A stretch of DNA of 64,000 nt from Patescibacteria group bacterium (GTDB lineage Bacteria > Patescibacteriota > Kazan-3B-28). This document shows, one piece after another, positions 20,193-59,635 of the stretch. Numbering within the stretch: position 1 is the stretch's first letter; every line of letters begins with the position of its first letter. The stretch is from assembly GCA_041649135.1 (NCBI GenBank), contig JBAZNQ010000001.1, positions 163,037 to 227,036 of the forward strand. The letters are read 5' to 3'. Below the pieces are notes generated by a model. That model had not been told where the DNA came from. It saw only the letters and a program-made list of their open reading frames with translations, and did no database searches. The position numbers and the translations under genes are program-made.

Positions 20193-21722
20193 ATGCGTAC
20201 TTCAGACACAACAGAGCAGGAGAACAAAAGGGGCATTATTTACTGCCGCGTATCATCAAAAGACCAACTAGAGGGAACCAGCCTAGAAACACAAGAGCGA
20301 TTCTCTACCGAATACGCAATTAATCATGGTATCAAGGTTATTAAGGTTTTTGTCGAACGAGGGGAAAGCGCAAAAACAGCCAATAGAACGGAGTTTAATA
20401 AAGCATTAGCTTTTTGTACTGATAAGAAAAATAAGATTCAGTATTTCATTGTTTATAAACTAGATCGATTTGCTCGCAATCAAGATGATCATGTCACTGT
20501 AAAAGCGATACTACGCCGTGCGGAGGTAGAATTGAGATCCGTCACGGAACCGATTGACCAAACTCCAATTGGCCGTGCCATGGAGGGAGTGCTATCTGTA
20601 TTCGCTGAATTTGATAACAATGTTAGAACCGAGCGTACTAAACAAGGTATGCTAGAGCGCGTCCAAGAGGGAATGTGGGTATGGCCGACTCCATTGGGTT
20701 ATTGCAGACCATTCAAGGGCTCTAATATTACACCAGAACCAGAAGTATCTCCTTTAATTCGATTGGGGTTTGAAGAGTATTCAAAGGGAATCTACACCTA
20801 CAAAAGCTTGGCCAAATTTTTGTCTGACCGAGGGTTGAGAACCAGAGGCGGATATCTGCCCTCTCATCAATTCATAGATAAAATGATAAAAAATCCAATT
20901 TACAAAGGATTTATAGAAGCATGGGGTGGACACAAGGGATCGTTCGAAGCAATCGTGTCAGAGGAGCTATTTGATTCGTGCCAAGTAAGCCGTAAGGGTT
21001 TATCACACAAAGCCCCTAGGATGTCCAGAAACCCCCTATTCCCTTTGCGAGGAGTTATATGTAAGGAGTGTTCCAGTCCGATCACTGGTAGCAAATCCAC
21101 GGGCAATAGTGGCAAGAAATATCCCTATTATCATCACCCACATCAGCATTGCTCTCTGGCACAATCAGTCCCAAAAGAGAACTTTGAACAACTATTCGTC
21201 GAGTTTTTGAACAACATTACCCCAGACCACCAATATGAGAAGTTATTCAAAGCAGTGGTGTTGGACATTTGGCAAAACAATTACAAAAGGTTTGACGAGG
21301 ACAATGCCAGAGTTCGAAGAGAAATCGCAAAGTTGGAACAAGAACGTCAAAAGGTTTTTGATCTTCACAGAACAGGGATATATACAGACAGCGAGTTTGA
21401 TGAGCAGAGAAACTTCATTAATCGAATGATAGATGAAAAACGTCTTCTGGTTCACGAAAAGGCAGTAGAAGAATTTGATATGGAAGAGGCTCTAAACTAT
21501 TGCTTCAACTTTATCAAACAAACCTCTAAAACATGGCTTGAAGCTGATTTCCCTCACAAATTACAGTTTCAGAAATTGATATTTAAGGGGAATATCGAAT
21601 TTGATGGAAAAAAGTTTGGAACCACCAAATTGTCAGCTCTGTATGCTCTAAATCGAGAATATTCTGGTGAAAAATCCCATTTGGTAGCGCCACGGGGAAT
21701 CGAACCCCGGTTACAAGAATGA
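20193..21722 (+). CDS. large serine recombinase (resolvase/invertase catalytic domain + recombinase domain + zinc ribbon)
   Basis: catalytic-serine context IIYCRVSSKDQ; resolvase core (YKLDRFARN); Cys/His cluster (CKECSSP...HHPHQHC); C-terminal 41 nt overlap the tRNA-Glu gene antisense. Confidence 0.8.
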   Translation: MRTSDTTEQENKRGIIYCRVSSKDQLEGTSLETQERFSTEYAINHGIKVIKVFVERGESAKTANRTEFNKALAFCTDKKNKIQYFIVYKLDRFARNQDDHVTVKAILRRAEVELRSVTEPIDQTPIGRAMEGVLSVFAEFDNNVRTERTKQGMLERVQEGMWVWPTPLGYCRPFKGSNITPEPEVSPLIRLGFEEYSKGIYTYKSLAKFLSDRGLRTRGGYLPSHQFIDKMIKNPIYKGFIEAWGGHKGSFEAIVSEELFDSCQVSRKGLSHKAPRMSRNPLFPLRGVICKECSSPITGSKSTGNSGKKYPYYHHPHQHCSLAQSVPKENFEQLFVEFLNNITPDHQYEKLFKAVVLDIWQNNYKRFDEDNARVRREIAKLEQERQKVFDLHRTGIYTDSEFDEQRNFINRMIDEKRLLVHEKAVEEFDMEEALNYCFNFIKQTSKTWLEADFPHKLQFQKLIFKGNIEFDGKKFGTTKLSALYALNREYSGEKSHLVAPRGIEPRLQE

Positions 21723-21756
21723 GAATCTTGCGTCCTAACCGTTAGACGATGGCGCC
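21682..21756 (-). tRNA. tRNA-Glu (anticodon CUC)
   Basis: reverse complement GGCGCCATCGTCTAACGGTTAGGACGCAAGATTCTCATTCTTGTAACCGGGGTTCGATTCCCCGTGGCGCTACCA folds as a cloverleaf (D arm GTCT/GGAC, anticodon stem CAAGA/TCTTG with loop TTCTCAT, T arm CGGGG-TTCGATT-CCCCG, encoded CCA); close to the E. coli tRNA-Glu pattern. Confidence 0.8.
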
Positions 21757-35466: not shown

Positions 35467-35689
35467 GGGACTACGGCGCAAACGGAAAGATAGAGGTTCT
35501 GTCAAAAACGGAGCCTCTTTTTATTAATTCTGTTTATTCCCTTAATAGTTTTTATCAATCTCAAATAAAGAACAAAACAATTTGAAATAAAATCCTACAC
35601 CTCCTCTGGAGATAGACAACGTCGCACATTGTATCTTGTACGACATTACATCAAGGATAAGGAGAACACCCCTTCCTTCGTCATTCCGA

Positions 35690-36317
35690 GTGAAACGAAG
35701 AATCCAGCAAAGCGTTTATCAATTTCTTTTTATCTTGACCTTGAATCCGACTTCGAATTTTCCAATTCGTTTTTGCAGATGGACTGACTACTATCGCCCA
35801 AGGCTCAATTGCCACCTCCCCGACCTCTGATACTCGTAAAGCTAAATACAGGTCTTCTGGGGCCAATGAAAAGGCCTACTAGCCAACCTTTGTCATTGCG
35901 AGAAGTTTTACGACGAAGCAATCTACTCCCGTCATCCTGAATTAATTTCAGGATCTTTAAAATCGGAACATAAATCGGCTTCAACCAGAAGAAATCTAAA
36001 CTCATCAACCAGGAGGCTAGCCCACCAGTCAACCAGACTCCCCCACCGACCGCTGAAACGACGCTCCTTGACTTTTTAGATTCGTCGTCCTGAGCGTAGT
36101 CGAAGGATCTATCATCAAATCTGGAAATCAGCTTTTGGAGCCAGTTTTTAGATGCGACCGAATCCCCGTCAATGCATGCAACGATTTCTCCCCGCACTTC
36201 CTTAAAGCCTCTAATTCTGGCATAAACAATTCCGCTCGGCCCATTCTCCTCAACAACTCTCCAATTTGTCCCGTCCTTCGCGTGCCCCGTTGTCATTCCT
36301 GCGAAGGCAGGAATCCA
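35690..36317. repeat. cluster of 5 GTCAT-headed palindromic mini-elements (about 25-32 nt each)
   Basis: 35690-35715 GTCATTCCGAGTGAAACGAAGAATCC; 35892-35923 GTCATTGCGAGAAGTTTTACGACGAAGCAATC; 35931-35955 GTCATCCTGAATTAATTTCAGGATC; 36084-36109 GTCGTCCTGAGCGTAGTCGAAGGATC; 36293-36317 GTCATTCCTGCGAAGGCAGGAATCC. Confidence 0.75.
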
Positions 36318-36503
36318 TTTTTGCTCCTTATCATCATCCTGACTTGACCAGAATCTTTTCGCGATCTCCACCGTCTTATCACTACAATTATGCGCCACCA
36401 AAATAACCTCATCCGGCATCAAAGTCTGCTGTTGAATTGATTTCAAACACCGCGCAATATTACCCGCTTCATTGTGGGCAACAATTAATACCGATATCTT
36501 CAT
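35805..36503 (-). CDS. glycosyltransferase family 2, N-terminal domain intact, interrupted in frame by palindromic mini-elements (possible pseudogene)
   Basis: MKISVLIVAHNEAGNIARCLKS...DEVILVAHNCSDKT...ACIDGDS typical of GT2; segments IPAFAGMTTGHAK, RSFDYAQDDE and LIQDDG are encoded by the GTCAT palindromes; C-terminal third is low-complexity. Confidence 0.5.
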   Translation of the reverse strand: MKISVLIVAHNEAGNIARCLKSIQQQTLMPDEVILVAHNCSDKTVEIAKRFWSSQDDDKEQKWIPAFAGMTTGHAKDGTNWRVVEENGPSGIVYARIRGFKEVRGEIVACIDGDSVASKNWLQKLISRFDDRSFDYAQDDESKKSRSVVSAVGGGVWLTGGLASWLMSLDFFWLKPIYVPILKILKLIQDDGSRLLRRKTSRNDKGWLVGLFIGPRRPVFSFTSIRGRGGGN

Positions 36504-52031: not shown

Positions 52032-52070
52032 GGCCACGGCTTTGCCTACTTTCGCCAAGACGAAAGTAGG
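52032..52070. repeat. conserved hairpin element 'GGCCACGGCTTTG + stem-CCAAGA-stem', copy 1
   Basis: ggccacggctttg CCTACTTTCG ccaaga CGAAAGTAGG; partner at 59512-59551 shows compensatory stem changes. Confidence 0.7.
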
Positions 52071-52633: not shown

Positions 52634-54640
52634 TTACAGTTCTTGATGAATTTTGGTTGCCAGTCGTTTCCCCACAATCTTTGCAATGTCATTCACGGTA
52701 GCGTTTTTTACACCAGACATGGAGCCAAACTCTTTCACTAATTTCCTGCGAGTCGTCGCTCCAATGCCGCCGATCTTTTCTAACCCAGATTGGGTTGTCC
52801 GCTTCTTACGCAAATGAGTATGATAAGCAATCGCAAACCGATGAGCTTCATCACGAATATTTTGTAATAAAATCTTAGTCGGCGAATTATTCGGTAGATC
52901 CCCCATAGCTTTAGCGGAGGGGGATGGTCTCCATAATATTAGTTCATCTCTCGCCTTCGTCCGACTATGACTGCCCTTGGCAATCCCGATCACTGCCACT
53001 TTAAATCCCTGTAATACTTTTGCGATCGTATTTACTTGGCCCCTGCCGCCATCGATCAAAACCACATCTGGCAAGCCGGCAAACGCAGTGTCGCCGAGCT
53101 TGCCACCCCGAGCTTGCCGAGGGGCTACCTGTTTTTCTGATGCTAGATACGCAAATCTCCGTTTCAATACTTCCGCCAGAGACGCAAAATCATTTGGCCC
53201 AGTTACAGTTTTTATTTTAAATCGGCGATACTGTTTTTTATCCATTTGTCCCTTTTCCCACACCACCATCGCCCCGACCGCGTCAGTCCCCTGCAAATTA
53301 GAAATGTCGTACGCTTCAATTCGCTCTAATTTTTTCAATTTCAAAATTTTCTTTAATCCATCCACTCCCTCGGTTGCGACTAATTTTTCCAATTGCCACC
53401 GACCAGATATCTGATTAAACTTCATTTCTGCGTTCGACTGTGCCAACCGCACGATTGCCCGCTGTCGACCTTTGGTTGGAACTATCAGTTTTATCTTTTT
53501 GCCAGTCACACCTTCCAGCCATTTCTCAAATCCCTTGCTCGCGTCAATCATTTCAGGCGACATAATTACCTTTGGCAAATCCGCCGCCTCACTATAATAA
53601 TCCCGTAAAAACCCTGCCAAAATCTCAGACAGTTCCGTTTCGTATTTCGAGTCAATCGCATACTGCTGATAATTTAACAATTTGCCGGAGCGGACTTGTA
53701 ATAACACCACCATCGTCTTGTTCAGTTCTCGCGCTACTCCAATCGCATCTTCACTAACCGACAAATTGGTCTTCACCACACTTTGCCGCTCGTTAATCGC
53801 TTCCATCGCTTTCAACCCGTCGCGAATCCGCGCTGCCCGCTCAAATTCTTTATTTGCCGACAATCTCTGCATCTCCGATTTTAATTGGTTGATAACTAAC
53901 TGATAATTACCATGCAAAAATCGCACCACTTGTTCTATTGTTTTGTGATACTCTTTACTTTCAACTTTGCCGATACACACCCCCGGACAAATTTTCAGAT
54001 GATAATTCAAACAGGCACGACCACGCCCGCTTTTCAGACTAGCCGTCGTGATTTGATTAGTGGCGCTACACAACGGAAATGTTCGCTTGATCAATTTCAG
54101 CACCTCGTAGACTGATCCGGAAGAAGCATACGGCCCAAAATATTTTGCTCCATCTCTCACCACCTTCCTCGCCAACAAAATCCGCGGAAATTCTTCATTA
54201 ACCGTAATTCGAATATATAAATAGTTCTTATCGTCCCGCATCATCACATTAAATTGCGGTCGATATTTCTTGATCAGCTCGTTCTCTAAAATAAATGCTT
54301 CGACTTCGTTGCTAACTGTAATCGTGTCAATCTTGCTAATTCGCTCCACAAGTGCTCGCGTTTTTTGGTCAACACCATTGGTTAGTGGCTTATGGCTAGT
54401 GGCTCCCTTAAAGTAGCTCGCTATCCGTTTCCTCAAATCCTTCGCCTTCCCAACATAAATCACCTTCTCCTCCCGATCTCCCCGAACCAACTTGCTGTCA
54501 TCCTGAACTCGTTTCAGGATCTTAGATGCTGAAATAAATTCAGCATGACGCGGAGTGGAACATCCATACATCAAATACACTCCCGGCCCACTCGGGATTT
54601 TCTTCAAATCAGGTTTAAACATTTTTGCCATCTTCTTCAT
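52634..54640 (-). CDS. uvrC: excinuclease ABC subunit C
   Basis: GIY-YIG (PGVYLMY...IYVGKAKDLRKRIASYF), UvrBC motif, endonuclease V-like domain, C-terminal HhH; start ambiguous between 54622 and 54682; two GTCAT palindromes inserted in frame in the GIY-YIG domain. Confidence 0.85.
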   Translation of the reverse strand: MKKMAKMFKPDLKKIPSGPGVYLMYGCSTPRHAEFISASKILKRVQDDSKLVRGDREEKVIYVGKAKDLRKRIASYFKGATSHKPLTNGVDQKTRALVERISKIDTITVSNEVEAFILENELIKKYRPQFNVMMRDDKNYLYIRITVNEEFPRILLARKVVRDGAKYFGPYASSGSVYEVLKLIKRTFPLCSATNQITTASLKSGRGRACLNYHLKICPGVCIGKVESKEYHKTIEQVVRFLHGNYQLVINQLKSEMQRLSANKEFERAARIRDGLKAMEAINERQSVVKTNLSVSEDAIGVARELNKTMVVLLQVRSGKLLNYQQYAIDSKYETELSEILAGFLRDYYSEAADLPKVIMSPEMIDASKGFEKWLEGVTGKKIKLIVPTKGRQRAIVRLAQSNAEMKFNQISGRWQLEKLVATEGVDGLKKILKLKKLERIEAYDISNLQGTDAVGAMVVWEKGQMDKKQYRRFKIKTVTGPNDFASLAEVLKRRFAYLASEKQVAPRQARGGKLGDTAFAGLPDVVLIDGGRGQVNTIAKVLQGFKVAVIGIAKGSHSRTKARDELILWRPSPSAKAMGDLPNNSPTKILLQNIRDEAHRFAIAYHTHLRKKRTTQSGLEKIGGIGATTRRKLVKEFGSMSGVKNATVNDIAKIVGKRLATKIHQEL
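54498..54549. repeat. two abutting, oppositely oriented GTCAT palindromic mini-elements inside uvrC
   Basis: 54498-54522 GTCATCCTGAACTCGTTTCAGGATC (plus strand) and 54525-54549 reverse complement GTCATGCTGAATTTATTTCAGCATC; together encode the extra GCSTPRHAEFISASKILKRVQDDSKLVRGD. Confidence 0.75.
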
Positions 54641-54666
54641 TATAGAAGCCAAGCTACAATCCGATA

Positions 54667-54695
54667 TAAAAAAGCCCCCCATCGGAAGGGGGGCT
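54667..54695 (-). terminator. rho-independent terminator on the minus strand just upstream of uvrC
   Basis: reverse complement AGCCCCCC-ttccgat-GGGGGGCT followed by TTTTTTAT. Confidence 0.55.
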
Positions 54696-55793
54696 CGACG
54701 ACCGTAGTCGCCTCATCCACTTTTCCCATACCGGCACGCGGTTGCTCTCTATTGCAGTAAAGAGCTGTCGCCATGAGTAAGCGCTTGAGACCGAACTCGA
54801 AAGTCCGATCACTCACAGCCAAGCCGAGAACGAAAAGTGGAAGGTACGTGCCGAAGGCCGACATATCAGCCCCCAAAGGAGCTACGCCGACCTTTACAGG
54901 CAACGCCACCGTTGTCGCCACAGCCAATGCTGTAGTCACCAACCGCACCGCCAAACTACCATAGCTAATATCGCTCGTCAATCCATTCAGAGACCTATCG
55001 CTATTTCAACAAAAAGCCCCTTCCGGATGTCTCCCCCACAAAAGTAGGAGCTAGCTTCCGAAAGGGGCGGGGTTCTGTTGGGTTTCAACTACCTTATGCC
55101 CCGTCTCGCGGTATATCTCCAAGAACCCCAAGCGCAACTCAATTGCCCCGATGACCAGCAGAACCCCTACAAGGAGCAATCCGCATTCTCATTTTAGCAT
55201 TTTTGCAACTGTATACATAAGAAAAACCCCGCCCGAATCAATCGGGCGGGGACAAGGGTTGTATCGGCCCTCCGGTCAAACATGGGTTAGGGACGTCAAC
55301 TAACCACAGTGATCCGGCGCTTAAGCAGCCCCAGAAAAAACATCACGAGACTCACTGGGGGAAGATTGATTATGGTTATCTGCTGATGCGGGACAGTTGG
55401 TGCTGGTGCACGCTCAAACCAACCAGTCTGTCATCAACAACGTTTCCATAATTACGGAGGGACCACTTAATTAGTATCTCTCCGCATCTCCACTTAACCC
55501 ACGTCTCGTCCTCCGTGGAAGGCCTCCACGACACACGCGCAACGCTGATTACCCAACACCACACGTTGCGGGCAAATTTAAGGAGCAGAGAGGAGAAGCA
55601 GTTTGCTTACCGTATTCTGGTAGATCTCGGCTGACGCAAGTGCTAATGGACCCATCGTGAATCCCAACTTGGCATCAGTTGCCAACTGCTTCTCCTAACG
55701 GCTTCAGCGATCACGCTAACCATCCCCCGCGGAGCTTTGTCTTATTCAGAGTCTACTCCAGATGATCAGCATCTCGCTCAAGCCGTACAGCCC
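54696..55793 (-). ncRNA. candidate non-coding transcript(s): GC-rich, ORF-poor, hairpin-rich 1.1-kb region between uvrA and uvrC
   Basis: no ORF longer than about 110 aa in any frame; only Ala/Val-rich low-complexity ORFs; minus-strand promoter at 55794-55822 and minus-strand terminators at 55222-55251 and 54667-54695 imply two transcripts of about 550 nt; identity unknown. Confidence 0.3.
55222..55251 (-). terminator. rho-independent terminator on the minus strand
   Basis: reverse complement CCCCGCCCGA-ttgatt-CGGGCGGGG followed by TTTTTC. Confidence 0.6.
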
Positions 55794-55822
55794 AATCTAG
55801 CAATCCATCCGATCAGCGTCAA
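55794..55822 (-). promoter_or_regulatory. sigma70-like promoter on the minus strand
   Basis: reverse complement TTGACG (55817-55822), 17-nt spacer, TAGATT (55794-55799), directly downstream of the uvrA stop. Confidence 0.4.
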
Positions 55823-55825
55823 GCC

Positions 55826-59511: not shown

Positions 59512-59551
59512 GGCCACGGCTTTGGATACTTTCCCCAAGAGGAAAGTATCC
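59512..59551. repeat. conserved hairpin element 'GGCCACGGCTTTG + stem-CCAAGA-stem', copy 2
   Basis: ggccacggctttg GGATACTTTCC ccaaga GGAAAGTATCC. Confidence 0.7.
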
Positions 59552-59609: not shown

Positions 59610-59635
59610 GGATTCCCGATCAGGTCGGGAATGAC
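59610..59635. repeat. GTCAT palindromic mini-element (intergenic copy)
   Basis: reverse complement GTCATTCCCGACCTGATCGGGAATCC. Confidence 0.7.

Follow-up and report, generated by a model that had tools for sequence, protein, structure and literature searches.

The window analysed here, 64,000 nucleotides from a Patescibacteria group bacterium of the Kazan-3B-28 lineage (GenBank assembly GCA_041649135.1, contig JBAZNQ010000001.1, positions 163,037 to 227,036 of the forward strand), contains eight short palindromic elements and one decayed ninth copy, located in the uvrC gene, in the remains of a family 2 glycosyltransferase (GT2) gene and in one intergenic spacer. We consider it likely that they belong to the NTS/SRM family of hairpins and that they are non-autonomous, being spread or maintained by a gene of the Ssn type acting in trans. 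This family was described by Chenal et al. 2025 (Nat Commun 16:2388; PMC11893778), with NTS defined as CGTCATTCCCGCGMAVGCGGGAATCYRG and SRM (Ssn-related motif) as the broader class. The assignment comes from sequence comparison and rests on the architecture of the elements, their flanks, their organisation in doublets and the association with Ssn genes seen elsewhere. The elements are not a new kind, nor are they a family peculiar to this genome, and here the first-pass annotation has to be corrected, the same hairpins being pan-bacterial and tied to Ssn nucleases. What appears to be unreported in the searchable literature is their abundance in genomes of the Candidate Phyla Radiation (CPR), their frequent residence in frame within core genes and the recurrent use of one loop in the GIY-YIG domain of UvrC. 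Actually, searches of that literature with the DNA words of the elements matched only primers or nothing, and the same was true for the encoded peptides. Ssn and the SRMs were described only in 2025, and these data bear on their role outside Neisseria and on the way in which the hairpins multiply.

Sequence and structure of the elements

The architecture read in the eight elements is Y-GTC-(A/G)T-stem-loop-stem-AT-C. Five are found at 35680-36315, two abut in opposite orientation at 54497-54549 and one lies at 59611-59635. Of the eight, the six cleanest were also retrieved, independently, by a hairpin scan, and the remaining two by a scan with relaxed settings. Reading of the window sequence placed the cluster of five, the uvrC pair and the intergenic copy where the first-pass annotation had put them, all eight within 1-2 nt, while the common architecture that it had proposed turned out to be exact in only five. 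These five are perfect 8-bp hairpins with loops of 4-5 nt, a predicted DNA folding energy between -6.1 and -7.7 kcal/mol and z-scores from -3.4 to -5.1.

Among the perfect hairpins, the one at 35931-35955 (+ strand, 25 nt, GTCATCCTGAATTAATTTCAGGATC) has the stem ATCCTGAA/TTCAGGAT (dG -6.2, z -4.4) and is read as ILKLIQDD in the GT2 remnant. The element at 36292-36315 (+, 24 nt, GTCATTCCTGCGAAGGCAGGAATC) folds as ATTCCTGC-GAAG-GCAGGAAT (dG -7.7, z -4.7) and is the window copy nearest to the canonical NTS/dRS3 type; identical 24-mers were found in Lacinutrix and in a metagenome-assembled genome (MAG) of Nitrospirota. In the uvrC doublet, the left hairpin (54497-54521, +, GTCATCCTGAACTCGTTTCAGGATC) has again the stem ATCCTGAA/TTCAGGAT and reads KILKRVQDD on the - strand, and the right one (54525-54549, -, GTCATGCTGAATTTATTTCAGCATC), with the stem ATGCTGAA/TTCAGCAT and read as RHAEFISAS, shows a compensated change from C-G to G-C with respect to its partner; a 25-mer identical to it is present in a Nitrospirae MAG (L043). 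The intergenic element (59611-59635, -, 25 nt, GTCATTCCCGACCTGATCGGGAATC) is the perfect hairpin ATTCCCGA-CCTGA-TCGGGAAT (dG -7.6) with canonical flanks, tcGTCAT...ATCcag, and is located between an ORF (open reading frame) of 184 amino acids and topA.

The remaining three belong to a weaker subtype with a GAG...CGA interior, which recurs in other phyla. One of them, with a weak stem, is found at the 3' end of the GT2 remnant (35680-35704, +, GTCATTCCGAGTGAAACGAAGAATC), and its ATGAC end, read on the - strand, provides the TGA stop of the ORF at 35681-35866. The 32-nt element at 35892-35923 (+, GTCATTGCGAGAAGTTTTACGACGAAGCAATC) has an ATTGC...GCAAT closing stem around that interior, a class also present in locus L018 and in the uvrC gene of the Kazan locus L003. 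The third, at 36084-36109 (+, 26 nt, GTCGTCCTGAGCGTAGTCGAAGGATC), is of the GAGCG subtype and has the variant head GTCGT. The decayed ninth copy lies at 36333-36355 (+, ATCATCCTGACTTGACCAGAATC, to be compared with GTCATTCTGGCTTGACCAGAATC in locus L248) and is read as SSQDDD in GT2.

The GTC head and the pyrimidine at position -1 were found in all eight copies, the head being GTCAT in seven and GTCGT in one, and the palindrome is followed in all of them by C and then by a pyrimidine, with an A after that in six. This GTC...C architecture agrees with the functional map of the published system, where the trinucleotide before the palindrome is important for cleavage and the C after it for binding (PMC11893778).

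Chance can be excluded as the origin of the window hairpins, because their counts are far above what is found in shuffled sequences or expected. Perfect 8-bp hairpins set between GTC and C number five in the window, and 60 dinucleotide shuffles gave 0.1 on average; the CTGAA/TTCAG pattern matched three times, when 0.03 matches were expected, and the GAGCG pattern once against 0.00. A looser statistic (GTCAT plus 3 extra base pairs) was not discriminating, with 6 cases in the window against 1.2 in the shuffles and a shuffle maximum of 6.

Distribution and maintenance of the hairpins

A scan with GTCATTCCNGCNNNNGCNGGAATC against one genome per species gave at least 120 stretches, when about 17 were expected by our own estimate, from Bacteroidota, Alpha-, Beta-, Gamma- and Deltaproteobacteria, Chloroflexota, Nitrospirota, Planctomycetes, Saccharibacteria, Paceibacteria and others, and the other subtypes of the window co-occur at the loci matching it. 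At least 120 stretches were also retrieved from metagenomes with GTCATSCTGAANNNNNTTCAGSATC, which corresponds to the CTGAA variant of the window. The hairpin itself is maintained, because the two free S positions of GTCATSCTGAANNNNNTTCAGSATC were complementary in 144 of 145 matches and the free N positions of GTCATTCCNGCNNNNGCNGGAATC in 169 of 171, which points to selection on the hairpin. The flank consensus derived from 438 elements in the retrieved loci has a pyrimidine before GTC and Y-A-G after ATC, the same as in the NTS (CGTCAT...ATCYRG).

The elements are often arranged in inverted pairs. In the genome scan, neighbouring elements followed the '+ then -' arrangement in 45 cases against 5, 5 and 5 for the other arrangements, and in the metagenome set the '+-' doublets were 57 against 14, 5 and 3. 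The metagenome doublets are mostly heterotypic, with spacers of 2-125 nt and an outer flank that is not conserved. An all-against-all clustering of the ORFs at 120 hairpin loci gave no recurrent neighbour gene, the largest clusters extending over 11 and 6 loci.

In contigs predicted as viral in IMG/VR (L289, L267, L282 and L331) the elements appear all on one strand (16/0, 5/0, 0/12 and 9/0), with 9-16 of them in some contigs, and in L289 this strand is opposite to the longest ORFs. These arrays are unlike the '+/-' doublets of bacterial chromosomes.

Association with Ssn nucleases

SsnA is a single-domain GIY-YIG nuclease of 94 amino acids; its binding is restricted to the single-stranded DNA form of the hairpin, and the cut is made a few nucleotides upstream (PMC11893778). 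In the homologues studied, from Neisseria and Wolbachia, the hairpin is bound together with the C after it, and the cleavage site lies a few nucleotides to the 5' side of GTC; two inverted copies of the repeat typically bracket the ssn gene, as in an insertion sequence, and the effect of the system in N. meningitidis is a lower transformation by DNA that carries NTS (PMC11893778). NTS/SRM hairpins include the Neisseria dRS3 repeat (Chenal et al. 2025; PMC11893778), and the ATTCCC...GGGAAT core found in the window resembles dRS3, hence the connection with this family.

With a strict GIY-YIG regular expression none of these genes was found in the set of 120 loci, and a tblastn search with small GIY-YIG queries then revealed Ssn-like genes with a hairpin close by. 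In locus L160, on a metagenomic contig, a 96-aa Ssn-like gene has GTCATGCTGAACTTGTTTCAGCATC (+) 25 nt away on one side and GTCATTCTGAACTTGTTTCAGAATC (-) 26 nt away on the other, which are of the CTGAA variant of the window, and canonical NTS lie on both sides of a 49%-identical gene in L058 (Methylotenera). One-sided SRMs were found beside the genes of L178, at 55 nt and with the stem variant of the window, and of L161, at 12 nt, whereas the gene of L154 has its nearest hairpin at 206 nt. The Ssn-like protein family has at least 7876 members (E<=1e-5), and all 120 listed carry the Pfam domain PF01541, the published ssn class being cd10448. No informative NCBIfam or PADLOC name was obtained for them. 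With the L160 protein as query, all the matches listed were nearly identical relatives, and no Kazan contig was among their sources.

In addition, a viral locus (L366) codes for an Ssn-like protein 66% identical to that of L160. Another small GIY-YIG ORF, of 92 amino acids (L194, 1291-1566), lies within a 16S rRNA gene, directly following the region of the 27F primer. Intron-encoded homing endonucleases are common in CPR bacteria, and this ORF is probably one of them and not an Ssn.

Insertions in one loop of the GIY-YIG domain of UvrC

The host gene uvrC (52634-54682, - strand) has its likely start at 54640, giving a protein of 668 amino acids as in the homologue P0001. UvrC has its best similarity to proteins of candidate division Kazan (CPR/Patescibacteria), and the gene order uvrA-uvrC-sigma-like-TraG-like-ligA-gatCAB-GT2-mfd-pth is common to the window and Kazan contigs of 0.4-0.7 Mb. 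Two hairpins, tail to tail and 3 nt apart, are contained in an in-frame insert of 87 nt (29 amino acids; 54482-54568, -, boundaries approximate) that separates PGVYLM, with the GIY motif (beta1, GVYLMY), from VIYVGKAK, with the YIG motif (beta2), in the N-terminal nuclease domain. As a '+-' doublet the pair is typical, apart from its spacer, which is unusually short. In the AlphaFold model the insert residues 43-71 have a pLDDT<50 and lie between the confident strands 34-40 and 73-80, so that the insert is predicted to form an extended, disordered loop of the beta-hairpin.

That the opposite pair keeps the frame, and that it varies between lineages, had been proposed from the window alone and is borne out by the orthologues. 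The spacing between GIY and YIG is exactly 9 residues in 106 of 120 UvrC homologues; 10 of the others fall outside the search expression, mostly by late gene starts, and 4 have a longer spacing, in all cases by hairpin-derived extra residues. In the relative L001, which is 75% identical, the site is uninterrupted at the DNA level, the gene caller having merely picked a later start codon. The spacing is 38 residues in the window, with the 29-aa doublet insert, 19 in P0003 (locus L003), with one 26-nt element of the ATTGC type, 14 in P0038 (L250), with a decayed element of the GAGCG type, and 33 in P0040 (L249), with a doublet as in the window whose second hairpin has decayed. The L249 UvrC is only 41% identical to that of the window, yet the same doublet is present there, with identical frames and the 6-nt outer flank CTCCGC in common, and the two doublets are ~80% identical at the DNA level. 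Since three SRM classes share one UvrC loop and the doublet is so similar in such divergent proteins, a preferred site or conversion between copies is suggested.

Other peculiarities were observed along uvrC. A second, unrelated in-frame palindrome is found at 52894-52927 (GTAGATCCCCCATAGCTTTAGCGGAGGGGGAT, read as SPSAKAMGD). At the same codon positions L001 and L003 have ATCCTCCGAAGCTTTAGCGAAGGAGGA, read as SSFAKASED, and it is lacking in more distant UvrC; a GTAG head considered for this palindrome was discarded, as it is not conserved in the relatives. At ~54380-54410, after SYF, there is a further insert of ~10 residues (KGATSHKPLTNG) with no evident palindrome, which is shared with P0006 (KGATSHKPLATSG), other sequences being found there in P0003 and P0007. 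The interval between uvrC and uvrA (54683-55825, ~1.1 kb) has no convincing gene and no Rfam match, and it measures 234 nt in L001 and ~1.3 kb in L003.

Accumulation of elements in a decaying glycosyltransferase gene

The GT2 gene (35681-36503, -) is a pseudogene that holds six copies, and not an intact gene with five in-frame inserts, because a conserved block has been replaced by an element, one nucleotide shifts the frame and the C-terminal part is split off. The GT2 orthologues have 234-288 amino acids and continue after FWLKPIY with YFWGANFAIRKS...GLSLAPEDLYLALRVSEVG...KTNWKIRS. In the window, the conserved YFWGANFAIRKS... (YFWGANF...) block is replaced by the element at 35892-35923, the frameshift is caused by one extra A in the run 35869-35872, and the C-terminal part remains as the separate ORF 35681-35866.

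In-frame insertion in this gene, as first annotated, holds for its N-terminal domain, where two in-frame inserts are absent from all the orthologues compared (the sites are empty in L247 and L248), and fails for the gene as a whole, which is broken; the peptides originally quoted for GT2 were correct. The first insert, of ~81 nt, comprises the element at 36292, read as WIPAFAGMT, and the decayed copy at 36333. The second has exactly 45 nt (36069-36113), its core being the element at 36084, and encodes RSFDYAQDDESKKS / RSFDYAQDD. The GT2 genes of relatives carry further copies at other sites, and a second contig of the same species (P0121) differs by one base in the loop of the element at 35892.

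Other coding copies and location of the elements

Pattern searches gave further copies in this genome, in its relatives and in many phyla. There are ~15 in the ~84 kb of this genome formed by the window and 10 kb at either side. One of them is an in-frame hairpin in trmD, ~4 kb past the right end of the window (L246, 14208-14232; KRGEIPKQVRNDGKKV, read as EIPKQVRNDG), and four more are found in intergenic spacers of that 10 kb. In L245 (5247-5331) there is an intergenic doublet with a nested hairpin. The NAD-dependent DNA ligase gene ligA of L003 (18387-18458; Kazan, GCA_001771185.1) contains an in-frame '+/-' doublet of ~39 amino acids (…SSWLAQDR…LLPRMTG…). Beyond these loci, a valyl-tRNA synthetase gene (L193, 2-2035) has two in-frame elements (RHPELVSGS and RHAELVSAS) and a DNA methyltransferase gene (L148, 273-2336) at least three (HPELVSGS, DRFRNKFGMT and HPERSEGS), both genes coming from the same source metagenome.

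Filled and empty orthologous sites are therefore available for three genes: uvrC, empty in L001 and filled in the window, L003, L249 and L250; ligA, filled in L003 and empty in the window; and GT2, filled in the window and empty in L247 and L248. In the three comparisons of filled with empty sites, made less clear by sequence divergence, no target-site duplication could be recognised. Together with the gene-less doublets, these sites are material for judging the mobility of SRMs and their mobile unit. The reading frame had been thought to be kept by pairing or by length variants of the hairpins. Actually, the inserted segments of 30, 45 and 87 nt consist of the hairpin plus extra non-hairpin bases, which together make multiples of three. 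TGA occurs in some frames of the elements, and the coding copies observed are read in open ones.

Such insertions explain a class of unusual peptides, among them ...RHAE..SAS..., ...QDD., IPA.AGMT,.ARND. and VIP..AGI., that turn up in the predicted proteins and the spurious ORFs of many genomes assembled from metagenomes.

Origin of the elements and alternative explanations

By analogy with the Ssn system, the forward strand of an element in single-stranded DNA would fold into a short hairpin, and Ssn would bind the hairpin and the C and cut 5' of GTC. The Kazan copies would be non-autonomous and acted on in trans by a gene of the Ssn type located elsewhere in the genome or formerly present, and insertion might take place anywhere, at random or associated with hairpins. 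In indispensable genes like uvrC and trmD the survivors would be stop-free insertions of a multiple of three in permissive surface loops, while dispensable DNA such as GT2 would accumulate copies and decay. In favour of this NTS/SRM origin, the window elements share with the published family the oriented unit of 24-32 nt with a Y-GTC head, an AT-closed palindrome of 7-8 bp, a short loop and a 3' C followed by Y-A-G, as well as the inverted '+ then -' pairs, the distribution across phyla and the stem variants flanking single-domain GIY-YIG genes of ~95 amino acids.

Several observations weigh against it. The stems of the window are outside the published NTS consensus and SRM string, and both strings (the second being HGTCWYN(0-2)YYVSBRHN(0-5)WNVSBRGN(0-2)RNCYNB) gave 0 matches in the window, L001 and L003; the mismatch to the SRM string is at stem positions, e.g. 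the T in CCTGC. This string was built by hand from 29 genomes of 4 phyla (PMC11893778), and the host is a CPR bacterium (Kazan), of a group outside the published RefSeq-based survey. The SsnA of N. meningitidis is inactive when the palindrome sequence is changed even if the hairpin is kept (PMC11893778), and therefore a cognate nuclease of different specificity would be needed for the window copies. No ssn-like gene was found in four related loci, nor in the window and the 10 kb at either side of it, which make up ~84 kb of a genome of 420-520 kb. Three of the eight copies (35680, 35892 and 36084), with 4-5 closing pairs around their GAG...CGA interior, have no stable fold in the nearest-neighbour model. 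The coding location is also atypical: about half of the ~15 copies of this genome are in coding or ex-coding DNA, five of them in frame within ORFs, whereas only 2% of the NTS of N. meningitidis are intragenic (PMC11893778), and over all the loci retrieved hairpins are depleted in long ORFs, with 31% and 8% inside them against 75% and 67% of random positions. Finally, the literature offers no established account of the multiplication of SRMs.

The strongest rival reading is one of orphan fossils: the hairpins would be of the same family, but in a lineage without Ssn, as inert remnants or arrivals by recombination with foreign DNA. Besides the lack of an ssn-like gene in the ~84 kb, this agrees with the several decayed copies (35680, 36084, 36333 and the second hairpin in L249) and with the 19% of genomes with >200 SRMs in which no Ssn homologue is detectable (PMC11893778). 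We regard it as unlikely given the five perfect 8-bp palindromes, with compensated differences between copies, the conservation of the uvrC doublet between the window and L249, at ~80% DNA identity versus 41% in UvrC, which is hard to square with neutral decay, and a density of copies that is high for a genome of ~0.5 Mb. Much less probable is a repeat of the repetitive extragenic palindrome (REP)/REPIN type, or another miniature inverted-repeat transposable element (MITE), mobilised by a tyrosine transposase (RAYT/IS200-type) or another one. The short oriented palindromes with a conserved 5' head and the inverted doublets do resemble REP, REPIN and BIME, an analogy drawn in the Ssn paper as well (PMC11893778), but the head is GTC(A/G)T in all the copies and in the 438 related elements, not GTAG (GT[AG]G), neither Y1_Tnp nor any other transposase is found among the window ORFs, Ssn-like genes were the sole family recurring beside hairpins in 120 loci, with all the flanked nucleases seen being GIY-YIG, and target-site duplications are not recognisable in the divergent sites compared.

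A role as host cis-elements at the RNA or transcription level (terminators, mRNA stabilisers or regulatory hairpins) is even more improbable. Some intergenic copies do lie downstream of genes (59611; L246, 14543 and 16285), but no T-run follows the hairpins, most window copies are inside ORFs or the pseudogene and in both orientations, no Rfam family was matched, SsnA does not bind the RNA form (PMC11893778), and the conserved asymmetric GTC head and 3' C would be without a role in a simple terminator. The idea that these are not insertions at all, being ancestral protein segments or chance palindromes, has practically nothing in its favour except the in-frame translation of the inserts, and is refuted by the comparison with orthologues, given the UvrC homologues without the extra residues, a close relative with an empty site and GT2 orthologues without the two inserts, and by the shuffle controls that rule out chance.

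A bolder version of the NTS/SRM origin, which we put forward tentatively, is that the tail-to-tail heterotypic doublet is the true mobile unit, a gutted NTS-ssn-NTS comparable to a REPIN, and that it, or single SRMs, have repeatedly entered or been kept at the beta1-beta2 loop of UvrC. The basis for such recurrence is that this loop is found occupied across Kazan-like lineages, at protein identities as low as 41%, and that frames and outer flank are kept. If true, insertion would be directed to a site, or hairpins would undergo gene conversion with one another, near the cut sites of Ssn, and SRMs would be a general source of loop insertions in CPR core proteins (UvrC, TrmD, LigA, ValRS and methylases).

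Comparison with other repeat families

Like the Neisseria dRS3, the copies at 36292 and 59611 have the core ATTCC(C/T)...(G/A)GGAAT. The exact dRS3 is ATTCCC-N8-GGGAAT, whereas 59611-59635 is ATTCCC-N9-GGGAAT and 36292-36315 is ATTCCT-N8-AGGAAT; furthermore, the other stems of the window (ATCCTGAA, ATGCTGAA and ATTGC) are unrelated and dRS3 is intergenic. As in NIMEs, inverted hairpin pairs bracket short variable segments. With the REP/REPIN/BIME repeats they share the head-oriented short palindromes, the inverted and often heterotypic doublets and the tie to a single-copy nuclease gene flanked by the repeat, but the head is GTC(A/G)T instead of GTAG, the nuclease is a GIY-YIG instead of an HUH/Y1 transposase, and REPs are by definition extragenic. 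A classical MITE is defined by terminal inverted repeats and a target-site duplication; the doublets have inverted hairpins at both ends, and no duplication was recognisable at the divergent sites compared.

The palindromic elements of Rickettsia (Ogata et al. 2000; PMC10969869) are also selfish palindromes that are found in frame, free of stops, in essential genes and at surface positions in a reduced genome. They belong to a different sequence family, with ~100-150 bp and a conserved peptide, in contrast with hairpins of 24-32 nt or doublets of ~55 nt (inserts of 30-87 nt) here. The family in this reduced CPR genome acts like them in its in-frame survival, its recurrent use of the UvrC loop and its pile-up in a dying gene.

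Other features of the window

Two intergenic hairpins of 10-11 bp, at 52045-52070 and 59524-59551, have a common loop CCAAGA and a stem core TACTTTC (CCTACTTTCG-CCAAGA-CGAAAGTAGG and GGATACTTTCC-CCAAGA-GGAAAGTATCC), and may be another small repeat family or terminators. A large serine recombinase with Resolvase and Recombinase domains (20193-21722, +) ends in or beside a tRNA gene (21685-21756, -), and upstream of it, at ~12-19 kb, there are ORFs without Pfam match and a HATPase_c_3 protein. The region 20193-21756 looks like an integrated mobile element at the tRNA.

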